A DNA stretch of 33,052 nt from a virus (taxonomy: Duplodnaviria > Caudoviricetes). Location: positions 1-33,052 of the IMG/VR virus record IMGVR_UViG_3300028588_000066, one strand, 5' to 3'. The notes below the pieces were generated by a model. The model did no database searches and was not told where the DNA came from. It saw only the letters and a list, made by a program, of their open reading frames with translations. The position numbers were made by a program, and so were the translations under genes. Numbering within the stretch: the stretch's first letter is position 1; every line of letters begins with the position of its first letter. This document shows, one piece after another, positions 5,274 to 12,529 of the stretch.

Positions 5274-6223
5274 CCGGAACGGTGGTGGCACTGCCCGCAA
5301 CGGGCGACGCGTCGCAGTGGACGGAGACGGAGAAGGCGCTCGTCGAGGCGGCCGGCCTCGTGTCCGGGCCGCCGAACAACAGGCAGCTGGCGCCGCGGCC
5401 CGTCGTGGAGGCGTTCCTGCTCCACGCCCGCCGCACCGGCCTCGACCCGATCGCCCGGCAGATCTACTGCATCGAGCGGAAGGGTCGCTGGGGCACGCAG
5501 GTGTCGATCGACGGCGCCCGCCTCGTCGCTGAGCGCACGAAGGAGTACCGGGGCCAGACCCCGACGCAGTGGACGAACGACGGCGTGACGTGGGCCGACG
5601 TCTGGCTCGACTCGAAGCCGCCGAAGGCAGCCCGGGTCGGCGTCTACCGCGAGGGATTCGTCGAGCCGCTGGTCGCCGTGGCGACGATGGACGCCTACAA
5701 CGCGGGCGGCCCGATGTGGACGAAGATGCCCGCTCTCATGCTCGGCAAGTGCGCGGAAATGCTCGCGCTGCGGAAGGCGTTCCCGCAGGACCTCTCGGGT
5801 CTGTACTCGACCGAGGAGATGGACCAGGCGGGCCAGCCGAAGCAGGCCGCGCAGGTGCCGGCGCAGCCCGCCCTCGTGGAGCCGGAGTCGTCCGGGCGCG
5901 ACTGGGTGGCGGAGGCGCGCACGAAGGCGTCGACGGCCGAGATCAACGCGCTGTGGGGCGAGGTGCCCGGGCACGAGCGGTCGCCGGAGCTCATGGCGTC
6001 GTTGCGGGCCGTCGGTGTGGCGCTGTCGCAGGAGGCCGCGGCTGAGCCGCCGTCGCCGGAGCCGGAGAAGCCGTGGGCGTCGCAGGGTGAGCCGGCCGGT
6101 GCGGAGTGGGTGACGCGTCCGATCCCGAACGGTGACGACGTGCGTCCGGGCGAGGAGGAGACGCCGCCGCTCGAGGGCATGGAGCCGGAGGCGCCGCGGA
6201 CGGGTGGTGACGACCGTGCGTGA
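5270..6223 (+). CDS. bet: Single-strand annealing protein Bet/RecT
   Basis: RTGLDPIARQIY, QVSIDGARLVAER, WTKMPALMLGKCAEMLALRKAFPQDLSGLYSTEEM; ATG 5270 with AAGGAGG RBS overlaps the YqaJ stop. Confidence 0.92.
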   Translation: MTGTVVALPATGDASQWTETEKALVEAAGLVSGPPNNRQLAPRPVVEAFLLHARRTGLDPIARQIYCIERKGRWGTQVSIDGARLVAERTKEYRGQTPTQWTNDGVTWADVWLDSKPPKAARVGVYREGFVEPLVAVATMDAYNAGGPMWTKMPALMLGKCAEMLALRKAFPQDLSGLYSTEEMDQAGQPKQAAQVPAQPALVEPESSGRDWVAEARTKASTAEINALWGEVPGHERSPELMASLRAVGVALSQEAAAEPPSPEPEKPWASQGEPAGAEWVTRPIPNGDDVRPGEEETPPLEGMEPEAPRTGGDDRA

Positions 6224-6719
6224 GGGCAGGACGCTGAACCTTCCGGCCACGACGAAGGACACCGAGCGGTGGCTGACGCCGAGGTGGATCCTCGACGCTC
6301 TCGGTGACTTCGACCTCGACCCGTGTGGCGCACCGGGCTGGCCGACCGCCGACGAGGTGTTCACCCCGGAAACACACGGCGACGGCCTGTCGCTGCCGTG
6401 GCGGGGCCGAGTGTGGCTGAACCCGCCCTACGGCAGCACCATGGGGTCCTGGCTGCAGCGCATGGCCGAGCACGGGCAGGGCACCGCGCTGATCTTCGCT
6501 CGCACCGACACAGCAGCGTTCCACGACTTCGTGTGGCCGCACGTCGATGCGCTCCTGTTCCTCCGCGGGCGCCTGACCTTCCTGCTCCCTGACGCGACGG
6601 CCGCTTCGGCGAACAGCGGCGCGCCGAGCGTCCTGCTGGCCTACGGGGCAAACGACGCCGAGCGGCTCCGCACGTCGGGCATCGCCGGGCACTTCGTGGA
6701 CCAAAGGGCAGCCGCATGA
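6216..6719 (+). CDS. Phage DNA N6-adenine methyltransferase (phage Dam family); start 6207 or 6216
   Basis: WLTPRW, FDLDPC, DGLSLPW, VWLNPPYG, ARTDT, RGRLTF motifs. Confidence 0.88.
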   Translation: MREGRTLNLPATTKDTERWLTPRWILDALGDFDLDPCGAPGWPTADEVFTPETHGDGLSLPWRGRVWLNPPYGSTMGSWLQRMAEHGQGTALIFARTDTAAFHDFVWPHVDALLFLRGRLTFLLPDATAASANSGAPSVLLAYGANDAERLRTSGIAGHFVDQRAAA

Positions 6720-7237: not shown

Positions 7238-7444
7238 ATGGCTGACAAGAGAGAGACGTACGCCGGCCTGCTGACCGGCGACCAGATCGGGAAGACCATC
7301 ACGGTCCCCGACCGCGACGGTGACCTCGTCAAGGGCGTTGTGCGGGTCATTGTGCACCAGCCCGGCAATGTTGTGGCCTTGTTCATGGGCGAACTGGCGC
7401 TGCCCCGCATGGTGGCGGCTGATGCGATCGCGGTCGTGTCATGA
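7238..7444 (+). CDS. Small hypothetical protein
   Basis: GAGG RBS; ATGA overlap with the next gene. Confidence 0.6.
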   Translation: MADKRETYAGLLTGDQIGKTITVPDRDGDLVKGVVRVIVHQPGNVVALFMGELALPRMVAADAIAVVS

Positions 7445-7821
7445 ACGGCGACTTCAGCGTCGACGTGAAGACGTCCATCCCCGCGGCCGAGTTCCGGTTC
7501 CTGAGCCAACTCGCCAAGCGCGAGAAGACCACCGTCGGCGTGCTCGTCGCGAGGGCTGTGCACAAGCAGCTGACCAACAAGCCGGTCCGCCCGGTCGTCG
7601 ACGTCACGACTCCGGACGTCAGCATTTCGCGGGGTCGCGGCGGACGGATCTTCGGGGCTGAGCAGGTCGAGGCGCTCCGGTCGCTGTACGAGGAGGGGTA
7701 CTCCGACGTGCAGATCGCACGGCGGCTCGGCTACTCGGTGTCGACGGTGCATCGGCGCCGGAGCGAGCTGGGCCTTCCGAGCACGCGGCCGCAGTACGCA
7801 CCCATCCGGAGGGCGTCGTGA
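7441..7821 (+). CDS. DNA-binding protein (RHH-like N-terminus, C-terminal HTH)
   Basis: LYEEGYSDVQIARRLGYSVSTVHRRRSELGL HTH. Confidence 0.75.
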   Translation: MNGDFSVDVKTSIPAAEFRFLSQLAKREKTTVGVLVARAVHKQLTNKPVRPVVDVTTPDVSISRGRGGRIFGAEQVEALRSLYEEGYSDVQIARRLGYSVSTVHRRRSELGLPSTRPQYAPIRRAS

Positions 7822-9053
7822 GCGGGCCCCAGATCGTGTCGCTGTTCAGCGGCTACGGCGGGCTCGACATGGGCGTGCAAGCCGTCATCGGTGGCGAGGT
7901 CGTGGCGCACGTCGAGTTCGACCAGGCGCCGTCGCGGATCCTCACGCACCACTGGCCCGAGGTGCCGAACTTGGGCGACGTCACGGCCGTCGACTGGGAC
8001 GCTCTCCCGCATGGCGACGACGTCGTGATGACGCGCGGGTTCCCCTGCCAGGACGTCTCGCTCGCTGGCCTCCGTCGGGGGCTGCGGGACGGCACGCGGT
8101 CGGGCCTCTGGTCCGAGTTCGCGCGCGGCACCGACGCGGTCCGTCCGGGCCTCGTCGTCATCGAGAACGTGAGGGGGCTGCTCAGTGCAGCGGCAGATCG
8201 GCAGATGGAATCAAGCCCGTGGGATGTGGGAGACAGACACGATGGACCTGCTCTCCGAGCACTCGGAGCCGTTCTCGGCGACTTGGCCGACCTCGGGTAT
8301 GACGCGTCGTGGTGTGGCCTACGAGCTGCCGACGCCGGTGCTCCTCACGGCCGGTACCGGGTCTTCGTCCTCGCCCGTCCTGTCAACGCCGCTGACCACG
8401 ACCGCGACGGGGGTGCAGACGCTCGAGCGGCAGGTGGGCGGCCGCGGCTCCGCGTTGCTCCCGACGCCGAAGACGTCCGACCACACCGGCCCGGGAGTGC
8501 ATGGCACGGGCGGCCAGGATCTGAGGACCGAGATCTGGTTGCTCAAGACGCCGACCTCGCAACTCGCGGTGAACGGGGGGTCGCAGCATCCGGACAAGCG
8601 GAAGGCGGGCGGGCACGGCCCGACGCTGGCGGACGAGGTCGAGCACCTGCTGCCGACGCCGACGGTCGTGATGAACGACGGGGAGCAGCCGGTGACGTGG
8701 CTCGCACGGCGGGAGCGGATCCTGGCGAAGGGGATCAACGGCAACGGGATGGGGATGCCGCTCCCGATCGCGCTGCTGCTCCTCGAGAGTGGGGCCAGTA
8801 CGGAGCCGCCGTCGACCGGTGGGAACGAGTCACTGGACGGGTAGCCCCGGCGCCCACGAAGGGCGACGGCAAGGCCGGCCAGCAGCGCCTCTCGGCGGAG
8901 TTTGTCGAGTGGATGATGGGCCTCCCCCAGGGCCATGTCACCGGTGCAGGCCTGACCCGGAACGAGCAGCTGAAGGCGCTCGGGAACGGCGTCGTGCCCC
9001 AGCAGGCGTCGCTCGCAGTGCGGCTGCTGCTCGAGCGGGAGGCCGCAGCGTGA
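7818..9053 (+). CDS. DNA (cytosine-5) methyltransferase, catalytic frame
   Basis: Motif I SLFSGYGGLD, IV GFPCQD, VI VIENVRGL, VIII PHGRYRVFV, IX RLSAEFVEWMMGLP, X LKALGNGVVP. Confidence 0.92.
   Translation: MSGPQIVSLFSGYGGLDMGVQAVIGGEVVAHVEFDQAPSRILTHHWPEVPNLGDVTAVDWDALPHGDDVVMTRGFPCQDVSLAGLRRGLRDGTRSGLWSEFARGTDAVRPGLVVIENVRGLLSAAADRQMESSPWDVGDRHDGPALRALGAVLGDLADLGYDASWCGLRAADAGAPHGRYRVFVLARPVNAADHDRDGGADARAAGGRPRLRVAPDAEDVRPHRPGSAWHGRPGSEDRDLVAQDADLATRGERGVAASGQAEGGRARPDAGGRGRAPAADADGRDERRGAAGDVARTAGADPGEGDQRQRDGDAAPDRAAAPREWGQYGAAVDRWERVTGRVAPAPTKGDGKAGQQRLSAEFVEWMMGLPQGHVTGAGLTRNEQLKALGNGVVPQQASLAVRLLLEREAAA
8185..8844 (+). CDS. Nested +1-frame ORF with repeated LxTP modules; candidate target-recognition/beta subunit of the C5 MTase
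   Basis: GAGGGGG (8171-8177) 7 nt before the GTG; third positions G/C-rich in this frame while the host frame uses many A/T-ending codons; LPTP, LSTP, LLPTP, LLKTP, LLPTP repeats. Confidence 0.75.
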   Translation: MQRQIGRWNQARGMWETDTMDLLSEHSEPFSATWPTSGMTRRGVAYELPTPVLLTAGTGSSSSPVLSTPLTTTATGVQTLERQVGGRGSALLPTPKTSDHTGPGVHGTGGQDLRTEIWLLKTPTSQLAVNGGSQHPDKRKAGGHGPTLADEVEHLLPTPTVVMNDGEQPVTWLARRERILAKGINGNGMGMPLPIALLLLESGASTEPPSTGGNESLDG

Positions 9054-9406
9054 GCAGCCCGACCCCGCGAGCCCTGCTTGCGACCCTCGACCAGCGCGAC
9101 GGCCACCGCTGCGCCTGGACCGGCCAGGAGTCCGACCGGCTCGTCCCGCAGCACCGTCAGGGCGGCGCCGGCGGCCGCCGCGACAAGCACCGCCCGTCGA
9201 ACGTCGTCTGGCTCGACAGCATCCTGAACGGCCGCATCGAGGCCGAGCCGGACCTGCAGGCCGAGGCGCTGCGGCGGGGCATCAAGATCTCGGGCTTCGC
9301 CGACCCGACCGCGACACCGATCGAGCACGCCGTGCACGGCCTCGTCCTTCTGGACGACGCCGGCCAGTGGGCACCAGTACCGAAGGAGACAACACCATGG
9401 CGATGA
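9050..9406 (+). CDS. Degenerate HNH-like protein
   Basis: RDGHRC...QHRQGG...SNVVWLDSILN follows the HNH layout but lacks most Zn cysteines; GTGA-coupled to the MTase. Confidence 0.6.
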   Translation: MSSPTPRALLATLDQRDGHRCAWTGQESDRLVPQHRQGGAGGRRDKHRPSNVVWLDSILNGRIEAEPDLQAEALRRGIKISGFADPTATPIEHAVHGLVLLDDAGQWAPVPKETTPWR

Positions 9407-10254
9407 CGGACTACGGCACGCCAGACACCCCCGGCTTCGCGGCCGTCCCGAACTGGATGATCCGCGACACCACGATCAGCACCTACGCGATCGCCGTCTA
9501 CGCGGCCCTCGCCTCCCACAGCGGCCGCGGGGGCATCCATCCCTCGCACGAGACGATCGCCGCCGAGGCGCGCTGCAGCAAGCGGAAGGTGCAGGACGCC
9601 CTCGACGAGCTGCGGGACCTGGGCGTTGTCGCCTCGATCAGGCGGAACGGGCGTGGCGGCCGTACGAGCAACAGCTACACGCTCCACCCGAACGGGATCG
9701 AAGTAGCGGCACACGGTGCCGTTACTGCGCTGAGCCCAACGGCACGGGGCGACGTAGGTAACGGCACCACGTGCCGTCAGGTAACGGCACCACGTGCCGA
9801 GGAAGAAGAACCCAGTGAAGAAGAACCCGTTAAGAAGACCCCCCTACCCCCTGCGGGGGTGAGCCGGGATGTCGCGAAGGTGACCGGTGTCGAGACTCTC
9901 CTCTTCGAGAGCTTCTACAAGGTCTACCCGCGGCACGTCGGTCGCCAGGCGGCCGAGAAGGCGTTCGCGAAGGCGCTGCGGGTCGCGCCGGCCGAGCGCA
10001 TCGTGGCGGGCGCAAAGCGGTTCGCGGCCGACCCGAACCTCCCGCCCAAGGAAGACGCGCGGTTCATCCCTCACCCATCGACCTGGCTGAACGAGGGCCG
10101 GTGGGACGACGACCCCCTGCCGCCTCGCGGTGGTGGCCGGGGGCAAGAGAAACAGCAGCAGGCGATCGACCTGGTGGAGAAGTACCGACGGAAGGAACAG
10201 GGACATGCTGCACTCAGAAGTGGCGGAGATGCTCGCTTGGGCCTCCGGAGTTGA
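9397..10254 (+). CDS. Replication initiator (N-terminal winged HTH)
   Basis: FAAVPNWMIRD, HPSHETIAAEARCSKRKVQDALDEL, FYKVYPRHVG, IPHPSTWLNEGRWDD; AAGGAG RBS; followed by loader and DnaB. Confidence 0.88.
   Translation: MAMTDYGTPDTPGFAAVPNWMIRDTTISTYAIAVYAALASHSGRGGIHPSHETIAAEARCSKRKVQDALDELRDLGVVASIRRNGRGGRTSNSYTLHPNGIEVAAHGAVTALSPTARGDVGNGTTCRQVTAPRAEEEEPSEEEPVKKTPLPPAGVSRDVAKVTGVETLLFESFYKVYPRHVGRQAAEKAFAKALRVAPAERIVAGAKRFAADPNLPPKEDARFIPHPSTWLNEGRWDDDPLPPRGGGRGQEKQQQAIDLVEKYRRKEQGHAALRSGGDARLGLRS
9702..9843 (+). repeat. Putative replication origin: palindromic iterons plus A-rich repeats inside the initiator gene
   Basis: AGGTAACGGCACCACGTGCCG at 9756-9776 and 9779-9799; related CGGCAC-N3-GTGCCG at 9707-9721 and a half site near 9738; then GAAGAAGAACCC twice and AAGAAGACCC. 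Confidence 0.8.
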
Positions 10255-10555
10255 CGGTCGTCTGCTCAACGAGATGAGCGTGGAGGCGTGGCACCAGATC
10301 GTCGGCCGGTTCGACACGGCTGACGTGCAGCAGGCCGTCCGGGACCACTACACGGAAGTGTCCCGCAACATCTACCCAGCCGACGTCGTGAAGCGCCTCG
10401 AGGCAGCTCTGGAAGTCGTGGCCCTGCCTTCGGGCACGGCCGAGCTGCTCGCCGAGCAGAAGGCCGCGTGGTGCCGTGAGCACAAGGTCACGGTGGAGGA
10501 GTTCGACGCGCATCAGGACGACCACGAGTGGATCCGGGCGGTGCAGCGTGGCTGA
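10205..10555 (+). CDS. Helicase loader/inhibitor (G39P-like)
   Basis: VEAWHQIV...QQAVRDHY...IYPADV pattern; position between initiator and DnaB. Confidence 0.6.
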   Translation: MLHSEVAEMLAWASGVDGRLLNEMSVEAWHQIVGRFDTADVQQAVRDHYTEVSRNIYPADVVKRLEAALEVVALPSGTAELLAEQKAAWCREHKVTVEEFDAHQDDHEWIRAVQRG

Positions 10556-11222
10556 CCCCTACTACCAGGACGACCTGGTCACGCTCTTCCACGGTCGTGC
10601 GGAGGAGATCTCCGAGTGGACCACGGCCGACGTGCTGCTCGTCGACCCGCCCTACGGCATCGACTACAACTCCGGCAGCCGCCGGGAGGCCGTCGCTGCC
10701 TCCATCCTCGGCGACAAGGACACCGCTGTTCGTGACGCGATCCTCGCCCTGTGGGGAGCGCAGCGTCCCGCGCTGGTGTTCGGCTCCTGGCGGGTCGAGC
10801 GTCCCGCAGGCACGAAGATGCTGCTCGTCTGGGACAAGAAGGGCGCCCTCGGCATGGGCGACTTGTCGATCCCGTGGAAGCCCGGGCACGAGGAGATCTA
10901 CGTCCTCGGCGCTGGCGCCTGGCGCGGCGACAGGACCTCCGACGTGCTCCGGGTCGCGCCCGTGCAATCAACGTCGCGGAACGGGCGCCTGCACCCGCAC
11001 CAGAAGCCCCTCGCGCTGATGGAGGAGCTGGTGCGCAAGCTGCCCGGCGGCGTGGTCGCGGATCCCACGGCTGGCGTCGGCAGCACGCTGCTCGCGGCGT
11101 CGCGGCTCGGGCAGCGTTCCGTCGGCGTCGAACTCGACGAGGCCTACTGCGAGGCGATCGTGAAGCGGCTCGAATCTGACCGCGCGCAGGCTCTTTTCGG
11201 CGACTGGGACGGTGCCGCATGA
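10548..11222 (+). CDS. DNA N4-C/N6-A methyltransferase, beta class
   Basis: DPPYG first, then HPHQKP and DPTAGVGST, GVELDEAYC. Confidence 0.9.
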   Translation: MADPYYQDDLVTLFHGRAEEISEWTTADVLLVDPPYGIDYNSGSRREAVAASILGDKDTAVRDAILALWGAQRPALVFGSWRVERPAGTKMLLVWDKKGALGMGDLSIPWKPGHEEIYVLGAGAWRGDRTSDVLRVAPVQSTSRNGRLHPHQKPLALMEELVRKLPGGVVADPTAGVGSTLLAASRLGQRSVGVELDEAYCEAIVKRLESDRAQALFGDWDGAA

Positions 11223-12529
11223 ACGACACGATCCAGGACAGGGCCCCGCAGCACGACACCGCGGCCGAGCAGTACGTCGTCGGCAGCATGATGCTGTCCC
11301 CGAAGGCGGTCTGGGAGGTGCTTGACGGGCTCACCCCGTCGGACTTCTACCTCCCGAAGCACGAGCTGATCGTCGCGGCCGCGGCCCGGCTCGCGCACCA
11401 GAACCAGCCGATCGACCCGATCACCCTCGGCGACGAGCTCGGTCGCGGCGGGGAGCTCGAGAAGGCCGGCGGCGCCGCCTACCTCCACGAGCTCTACGGC
11501 GCCCCCACGACGGCGGTGAACGTCGGCTACTACGTCGACATCGTCAAGGACCGCGCGCTCCGTCGTCGCTTAGCAGCCGCCGGGACGCGGGTCGCGCAGA
11601 TGGGCCTGTCGACCGAGGGCGACGCGTTCGAGCTCGCCGACAACGCGCGCACCGAGATCGAGCAGGTCGCGGCCGGCGCCCGCGTCGACGTGCACGCCGT
11701 CGGCACGACGATCGACGCCCTGATCGACCGGCTCGACGAGAAGCCCGAGTACGTGCCGACCCCGTGGCCGTCGCTCGACAAGCTGATCGGCGGGCTGGCC
11801 GCCGGGAACCTCGTCATCGTCGGCGCCCGACCCGGCGAGGGGAAGACGATCGTCGGCCTGCAGTGCGCGACCCGGCTCGCTCACGAGGGCCTGGTCGCGT
11901 TCATCAGCCTCGAGATGGGCGAGGACGAGCTGCAGATCCGCCTCATCGCGCAGTACGGCGAGGTCCACATGAAGAACCTGCGGAACCGCACCCTGAACAC
12001 CGAGCAGTGGAACCGCGTGCGGATCGCCCGCCAGCGGTTCCAGGAGGCCCCGATCTTCATCGGCGACGACATCTCGACGCTGACGCAGATCCGCTCGTTC
12101 GTCCGCTCGGTCGCGCGGAAGGGGAAGCTCGCGGGCGTCGTCATCGACTACCTGCAGCTGATCGAGGGCGGCGGCAAGGAGAACCGGCAGCAGGACGTCG
12201 CGGACTTCTCGCGGGGCCTCAAGAAGATGGCGAAGCAGCTGCAGGTGCCCGTCATCGCGCTGTCGCAGCTGTCGCGGCCGCCGGCGCAGCGGACGACGCG
12301 GACGCCGCAGCTGACGGACCTGCGGGAGTCGGGCGCGATCGAGCAGGACGCCGACGTGGTGCTGCTGCTCTCGTACGACCGCGCGAAGAAGCCGGGCGAC
12401 CTCGAGGTCGTCGTGGCGAAGAACCGGCACGGCGAGATGGGGACGGTCGTGCTCACGTGGCAGGGCCAGTTCGCGCGCCTGCAGGACAAGACCTGGGACC
12501 CGTTCGGGTCGACCCAGCTGGATCTCTAG
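11219..12529 (+). CDS. dnaB: Replicative DNA helicase DnaB-like
   Basis: GARPGEGKT Walker A, SLEM, VIDYLQL, ALSQLSR, DLRESGAIEQDAD, KNRHG. Confidence 0.97.
   Translation: MNDTIQDRAPQHDTAAEQYVVGSMMLSPKAVWEVLDGLTPSDFYLPKHELIVAAAARLAHQNQPIDPITLGDELGRGGELEKAGGAAYLHELYGAPTTAVNVGYYVDIVKDRALRRRLAAAGTRVAQMGLSTEGDAFELADNARTEIEQVAAGARVDVHAVGTTIDALIDRLDEKPEYVPTPWPSLDKLIGGLAAGNLVIVGARPGEGKTIVGLQCATRLAHEGLVAFISLEMGEDELQIRLIAQYGEVHMKNLRNRTLNTEQWNRVRIARQRFQEAPIFIGDDISTLTQIRSFVRSVARKGKLAGVVIDYLQLIEGGGKENRQQDVADFSRGLKKMAKQLQVPVIALSQLSRPPAQRTTRTPQLTDLRESGAIEQDADVVLLLSYDRAKKPGDLEVVVAKNRHGEMGTVVLTWQGQFARLQDKTWDPFGSTQLDL

Follow-up and report, generated by a model that had tools for sequence, protein, structure and literature searches.

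Introduction

Multispecific DNA cytosine-C5 methyltransferases (C5 MTases) of Bacillus phages, among them SPbeta MtbP and the enzymes of phi3T and SPR, carry tandem recognition domains. In C5 MTases generally, specific recognition is described as lying mainly in the variable region, and in the two-chain enzyme M.AquI (CYCGRG) the protein is split after motif VIII (PMC3404938). A different division is described for M.EcoHK31I (YGGCCR), where a nested beta chain with its own start carries motif IX and alpha has the recognition domain (PMC2836561, PMC3404938); silent removal of the beta starts is reported to abolish methylation (PMC2836561). Closer to the present case, genes 7 and 6 of mycobacteriophage Corndog have overlapping coding potential and a strong ribosome-binding site inside the upstream gene, two products versus recoding being left undecided (Cresawn et al. 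2015, PMC4351075). Here we analyse a C5 MTase gene at positions 7818–9053 of a 33,052-nucleotide stretch of phage DNA (Caudoviricetes; IMG/VR record IMGVR_UViG_3300028588_000066), the whole of which is referred to as the window. A second open reading frame (ORF) lies inside this gene in the +1 frame. We consider it probable that the two overlapping frames encode the two chains, alpha and beta, of one orphan phage cytosine methyltransferase, with beta supplying the recognition region as four interchangeable modules.

As read from the DNA, the layout is like that of M.EcoHK31I with a different division of motifs, and the modularity is like that of the multispecific phage enzymes without detectable homology to them. 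As in the description of M.EcoHK31I, a second chain with its own start is encoded wholly within the alpha gene in a different frame, and alpha has motifs I–VIII and X; the nested ORF of the window is under selection. Unlike M.EcoHK31I as described, the window alpha has motif IX as well as X and no candidate recognition region, beta is an array of exchangeable modules, and the gene lies in a phage with no partner restriction enzyme evident among the 23 window ORFs scanned. The division found in M.AquI, with motifs I–VIII on alpha and IX–X on a second chain, occurs in 25 of 143 IMG/VR relatives, whereas the window keeps IX–X on alpha and its second gene is nested rather than downstream. Tandem exchangeable units of 25–45 residues between motifs VIII and IX of an orphan phage enzyme are a point of likeness to the Bacillus phage enzymes, which unlike the window enzyme consist of a single chain in one frame. 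The split methylases of cluster F phages, likened to Corndog 7/6 in PMC4351075, match the window beta; Corndog itself, compared by description, has AquI-type wiring there, and the nested form, the module array and the handover described below are absent from that description. We found no account of the nested modular form in the literature searched, most subscription papers, REBASE and bioRxiv supplements lying outside its scope, and none is given in the available portions of PMC2884959, PMC9957025, PMC11954522, PMC6536676 and PMC4626039.

Results

Frame 0 of the gene encodes alpha, which matches PF00145 (E 3e-28) and phrog_363 (E 5e-63). Motifs I, IV (PC), VI (ENV), VIII, IX and X are all present in order, numbered by what we take to be the usual convention, with landmarks FSGYGG at 7845, GFPCQD at 8037, ENV at 8163, PHGRYRVFVLA at 8343, RLSAEFVEWMMGLP at 8886 (motif IX) and QLKALGNGVVPQQA at 8967 (motif X). 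Between motifs VIII and IX alpha has a linker of 138 residues, of which 31 are Ala, 24 Arg, 22 Gly, 20 Asp and just 10 large hydrophobics, and no other variable element. The +1 frame is closed by a TGA at 8170 immediately before a Shine-Dalgarno (SD) sequence, which stands 7 nucleotides ahead of the GTG start of beta. Over approximately 8382–8843, GC content at third codon positions is 0.93 in the +1 frame versus 0.54 in frame 0, which itself has 0.94 before and 0.91 after the overlap. Beta matches phrog_1008 (E 7e-19), and this family is divided in order between the frames, its positions 74–147 matching beta and 198–321 the alpha C-terminus; a known methylase family is thus split over two frames. 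A preliminary description, made from the letters of the window, had noted the complete motif chain in frame 0, the Gly/Ala/Arg/Asp-rich stretch between VIII and IX, an open +1 frame with GC3-rich codons and its own SD, and the absence of motifs IX and X from the nested chain, and each of these observations held. Coordinates are given in Table 1.

Table 1. Features of the methyltransferase locus and its neighbours, in window positions.
Feature	Position	Strand	Frame	Remarks
Alpha chain, 411 residues	7818..9053	+	0	C5 MTase motifs I–VIII, low-complexity linker, C-terminal domain with IX and X
Motif IV (catalytic PC)	8034..8054	+	0	Codon 8034–8036 is Arg; Gly or Ala in relatives
SD GAGGGGG (8171–8177) and GTG start (8185) of beta	8171..8187	+		Frame-0 codons GTG AGG GGG ... 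AGT GCA just after ENV
Beta chain, 219 residues	8185..8844	+	+1	Wholly nested inside alpha
Beta N-terminal arm (W..W hairpin, WPTSGMTRRGVAYELPTP)	8197..8337	+	+1	Overlies alpha motifs VII–VIII; both frames constrained
Frame-0 linker	8376..8789	+	0	Out-of-frame reading of the modules; stop-free across the family, protein not conserved
Module 1 (VLSTP...QTLERQVGG)	8377..8454	+	+1	Rare type; also in relative P0002 and phage MidnightRain
Module 2 (LLPTPKTSD...DLRTEIW)	8455..8538	+	+1	Type M
Module 3 (LLKTPTSQ...TLADEVEH)	8539..8646	+	+1	Type A
Module 4 (LLPTPTVVMND...PLPIAL)	8647..8775	+	+1	Type C
Frame-0 C-terminal domain	8790..9008	+	0	WGQY..RWE helix, motif IX (8886–8927), motif X (8967–9008)
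Dam-like methylase	6132–6719			Orphan
N6/N4 methylase	10476–11222			Orphan

An error of assembly at the locus is unlikely because Logan contigs from run X1, which may be the source sample, tile 7800–9070 with zero differences or gaps, and fragments from another study (X2) are identical to the window over 8536–8810. Two finished isolates, Streptomyces phage Raleigh (gene 38) and Arthrobacter phage MidnightRain (gene 84), both with a typical motif IV, have the same nested layout. These observations contradict compensating sequencing frameshifts. In a related phage present in both runs, replaced segments of the locus give net length differences from the window of +42, -69 and +33 bases, each divisible by three.

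Relatives of the gene, which come from actinobacterial phages and genomes, were collected in two sets. The IMG/VR set contains 149 loci and the window; half of the loci came from searches with the +1 protein, and ENV served as an anchor in 143. The GTDB set was drawn by motif X alone, a draw that is blind to the +1 frame and favours single-frame alphas, and consists of the 80 loci most similar to alpha among 320, of which 79 could be anchored; approximately 990 GTDB stretches hold the motif-X pattern. The beta arm was found in the +1 frame at E<0.01 in 79/79 of these loci, and motif X lies in frame 0 without an intervening stop in 77 of the 79.

We compared codon changes in the two frames across these relatives. 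For module type A, the synonymous fraction of changed codons was 0.76 in the +1 frame versus 0.04 in frame 0 (62 homologous segments), and for type C it was 0.50 versus 0.05 (12 homologous segments). The pattern was reversed in the two alpha-only regions, with 0.53 and 0.51 in frame 0 versus 0.10 and 0.14 in the +1 frame. Where the arm overlies motifs VII–VIII, the codons of alpha carry the mark of the second frame: the motif-VII Gly is GGG in 47/47 and 69/69 loci against a background of approximately 17%, the preceding Leu, read as Trp in the +1 frame, never uses its commonest codon CTC, and for Tyr the codon TAT occurs in 23/29 and 17/19 cases against backgrounds of 9% and 14%. The suggestion that approximately 8185–8380 is meaningful in both frames at once is borne out by these codons and by the presence of the arm throughout the GTDB set.

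Over the modules frame 0 behaves differently. A codon-permutation test with two control sets gave 0 observed frame-0 stops versus 76.3 expected (5,793 codons, 51 dereplicated loci), and 0 versus 68.3 when only loci found with the +1 protein were counted. The controls matched expectation, with 186 stops versus 185.5 in frame +2 and 117 versus 123.7 in AquI-like split loci. No correctly anchored locus has its C-terminal domain behind a stop (5/78 could not be scored). The signal comes from the family, since in the window alone an open frame 0 across 135 codons is within chance (P 0.47). These comparisons demonstrate, at the level of codon use and substitution, that both frames are under selection and that over the modules frame 0 is maintained without stops while its residues there stay unconstrained. 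The proposals of a dual-coded locus and of a frame 0 that needs only openness over the modules are thereby both upheld.

The start of beta is also a recurring feature, as had been predicted. Among 54 dereplicated nested loci, a GTG at ENV+22 is found in 24 (23 of them with an SD-like run), a start approximately 70 bases upstream in 14, an ATG at +4 in 8, and the latter two together in 2, so that three positions cover 48/54. The only family match of beta is to a methyltransferase PHROG, and no nuclease family was matched in PHROG, Pfam or NCBIfam.

The preliminary description had read five LPTP-type modules in the +1 frame. The array is real and consists of four; the first LPTP, in YELPTP, closes the conserved N-terminal arm, overlapping motif VIII. 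Each module has the layout L-L-P-T-P, a polar Gly-rich loop, then x-L-x-x-x-V-x-x-L; the loops show an excess of Asn, Thr, Arg, Lys, Ser and Gly and a deficit of hydrophobic residues. A 17-nucleotide direct repeat opens modules 2–4 at spacings of 84 and 108 nucleotides, and is a plausible crossover site. From 92 nested and split loci we obtained 312 modules, which fall into 41 clusters of at least two, some of them from near-identical phages only, and 39 singletons, and occur in many orders; type A is over-counted, one search pattern having lain inside it. Two to six modules are present in 75/79 GTDB loci, and both loci without modules are broken. These data show that modules are exchanged as whole units at the conserved L-L-P-T-P junction, as their proposed addition and loss in frame would require.

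The family varies in how its motifs are distributed between the frames. Of the 143 anchored IMG/VR loci, 60 are nested as in the window, 4 are probably nested, 25 are AquI-like, with an alpha that stops after motif VIII and a +1 chain that bears IX and X, 3 have IX only on the +1 chain, and 51 are of other kinds, mostly of a more distant class. Motif IX on beta with X on alpha was found in 0/143. Among finished isolates Raleigh and MidnightRain are joined by PFR1, which has a frame switch, phiBT1, which is AquI-like, and Inventum, which has a damaged split form. Curated annotation records the outer gene alone for Raleigh, MidnightRain and PFR1. For phiBT1, gp9.1 (L153, 1203–2300) is annotated 'may be inactive', and an unannotated overlapping +1 ORF contains the arm, two modules and motifs IX–X. 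In ten IMG/VR handover loci (L011, L026, L047, L069, L072, L073, L078, L079, L080 and L083), and also in PFR1 (L152), the end of the +1 chain coincides with a module junction, beyond which the array resumes in frame 0. With the single-chain relatives described below, the same parts occur in four arrangements, and the boundaries between the chains are movable. A third chain restarting at the beta stop was considered for the handover loci and rejected: a GTG overlaps the stop in only 3/10, and all ten have frame 0 open from ENV onward.

Several of the loci had features of their own. Some alphas (L012, L019, L021, L022, L038 and L058; proteins P0006, P0015 and P0046) have, after ENV and before motif VII, a long insert of helical appearance, and L092 has an insertion after ENV whose +1 reading resembles an endonuclease-type ORF. 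The distant second C5 methylase class (L096–L148) has a +1 ORF around ENV that ends in CSLS..LE..RFYLS..ACAGILRRA, and its alpha has its own long variable region; ORFs of this type match inside Dam-family-annotated genes of approximately 450 Escherichia plasmid records, mostly 90–100 kb and possibly P1-like.

Single-chain relatives came from a search for longer proteins and were analysed at the protein level only, with P0064 left out as a likely frameshift artefact. The arm follows directly and in frame after motif VIII in 11/65 catalytic-domain proteins (E<0.01; best P0024, E 2e-14), and is itself followed by modules and then motifs IX–X. In a structure model of P0024 the arm forms ordered strands (predicted local distance difference test, pLDDT, 73–94), the alpha insert after ENV scores <50, and scores in the modules range from low to medium. 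For a second single-chain relative, P0110, the best fold match was M.HhaI (E 1.5e-13), the modules being mostly <50; the HhaI-like fold of the family is seen in this relative, which was the protein modelled. Searches of structure collections returned unnamed clusters and matches of low template-modelling score to PF00145 clusters in the ESM Atlas, and C5 methyltransferases only in BFVD.

In a quick catalytic-domain tree of 75 rows, from which rows with a pattern-missed N-terminus were dropped (e.g. 4/10 single-chain proteins), the wirings are mixed: there are 13 changes among five groups, and strong branches force 2 for the nested and 2 for the handover form. The tree suggests repeated rewiring of the enzyme.

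The C-terminus of beta differs among relatives. Where beta runs through the alpha Pro-Thr that precedes motif IX, alpha uses CCA in 44/56 and ACT in 36/56 loci, versus 3/47 and 3/47 where beta has already ended, and the resulting +1 tails read QLTLW (12), QLTIE (9) or QLTIW (5), e.g. in L037, L091, L172 and L192. These tails resemble the clamp-binding motif QLPLWG of mycobacterial ImuB (PMC10421592) and are putative sliding-clamp-binding peptides. The window beta ends earlier, without such a tail. No enrichment of a clamp-like motif was found in the beta arm (strict pattern 0/53, 3/28 and 1/72). Elsewhere in the window, C-termini like clamp motifs are found on the N6/N4 methylase (QALFGD) and on DnaB at 11219–12529 (QLDL).

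The window, of approximately 70% GC (71% is the value quoted for the openness calculation), reads as the genome of a temperate siphovirus, with matches to integrase, YqaJ, RecT, DnaB, portal, capsid, tape-measure and terminase proteins. The methyltransferase gene lies in the recombination/replication block, flanked by the two further orphan methylases of Table 1; the three belong to three classes inside 5 kb of the replication block. A short ORF downstream of the gene matches an HNH PHROG. No Rfam element was found in 7400–9500, and a tRNA search was also empty.

Discussion

From the behaviour of the two frames across the family, we consider it very likely that the locus encodes a two-chain enzyme. 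Ribosomes would start separately at 7818 for alpha and at 8185 for beta. Alpha would be translated through the disordered linker, which would tether motifs IX–X to I–VIII, and beta would dock on alpha through its N-terminal arm and fill the variable region. The modules would set the target cytosines, probably in more than one sequence. The enzyme would likely serve to shield phage DNA from host restriction. The preliminary description had imagined the nested product as a possible stand-alone recognition unit; the stand-alone character is not supported, the conserved arm being fused in frame after motif VIII, or joined to IX–X, in relatives. The +1 product is likely to be a subunit, mainly because single-chain relatives have the arm fused in frame. 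That the modules are recognition elements is, in our judgement, reasonably likely from their position and behaviour, because the variable region is the main seat of specific recognition in C5 MTases (PMC3404938) and alpha contains no other candidate at that place. True multispecificity is a good possibility, though one of which we are not quite persuaded.

A number of observations weigh against a modular two-chain enzyme that functions in the window. The loci share modules by recent descent, so that the counts given above overstate their independence, and +1 identity of the arm over motifs VII–VIII is modest (0.50 versus 0.38 and 0.47 in alpha-only regions). Six of the 54 nested loci have none of the three recurring beta starts, three GTDB loci are broken (L157, L160 and L216), and a +1 stop falls inside the module array of L195 (GTDB) and L034 (IMG/VR). 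Neither fold nor sequence connected the modules with known recognition domains: a module profile hidden Markov model gave no match to the SPbeta MtbP variable region (E 0.19; a single target, and short divergent modules) or to solved chains (best E 0.24), searches of Pfam and NCBIfam gave none, and the modules were of low confidence in both structure models. The residue before G-F-P-C is Arg in the window alone among 167 loci, 159 of which have Gly or Ala, and the related phages from the X1 and X2 runs have Gly; the window enzyme may be weakened or impaired by this Arg beside motif IV. For Corndog genes 6/7, mass spectrometry as reported in PMC4351075 detected no products.

The strongest alternative accepts two chains and gives the enzyme one fixed or relaxed specificity, the modules being accessory (stabilising, DNA-affinity or decoy elements) or used one at a time. 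The lack of similarity to known recognition domains and the low model confidence would fit such a role, as would, by analogy, the relaxed specificity described for some phage m5C MTases (PMC6536676). Accessory elements would hardly account for distinct module types that are each conserved as protein and recur in different orders and phages, nor for the rarity of GTDB loci with fewer than two modules, those with none being broken, and they would leave alpha without any candidate recognition region. We regard this alternative as unlikely, though still the most serious competitor of recognition by interchangeable modules.

Much less probable is a single polypeptide made by recoding, in which a frameshift, hop or splice would carry translation from frame 0 to +1 and back. 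In its favour, single-chain relatives exist, and for Corndog 6/7 a frameshift, a hop and an intron were all left open (Cresawn et al. 2015, PMC4351075). The arrangement of the arm argues otherwise: it and motifs VII–VIII occupy the same bases, constrained in both frames, so one chain cannot hold motif VIII followed by the arm. Recoding would also leave frame 0 without need of openness over the modules, yet it stays open; the beta starts recur, are mostly exclusive of one another and have SD sequences; the Rfam search of the region was empty; and reverse-transcription PCR as reported for Corndog revealed no splicing (PMC4351075).

Out-of-frame HNH genes are described within actinophage methylases (PMC11855218), and by that precedent the +1 product could be a separate protein, either a selfish insertion or a regulator, and no subunit. 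As in those cases, a hidden out-of-frame gene lies within the window methylase, and the frame that hosts it remains open. Those described are patchy homing endonucleases, whereas the arm of beta is family-wide, beta has no nuclease motif and matches only a methyltransferase PHROG, and the +1 chain itself bears motifs IX and X in the AquI-like loci, which together make a separate protein very improbable. An artefact, whether a pair of sequencing frameshifts that cancel out or a frame open by chance in GC-rich DNA, would draw on the unremarkable openness of frame 0 in the window alone and can practically be dismissed in view of the contigs of both runs, the finished isolates and the family statistics.

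With a nested subunit as the preferred reading, a broader picture is possible, which we offer with greater reserve than multispecificity itself. Actinophages may carry widespread multispecific methylases built from an overprinted combinatorial library of dozens of recognition cassettes, one target each, shuffled at L-L-P-T-P. Single-base shifts at the junctions would move the passage from beta to alpha, so that the enzyme would occur as a single chain, as a pair of adjacent chains or in the nested form, and in many members the nested chain would end in a clamp-like peptide tying methylation to replication.

The two-chain reading is a possible answer to the question left by Corndog genes 6/7. 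In a common phage and prophage gene, for which annotation usually lists the outer gene only, a long same-strand overlap under selection turns out to be the rule, and the prediction follows that the annotated ORF, when cloned, would be active only through the hidden second gene that it carries. Should each module prove to specify a target, the family would hold a natural, swappable code of DNA-reading units of approximately 25–45 residues, of use in the study of phage anti-restriction and in the design of methylases with a chosen specificity.

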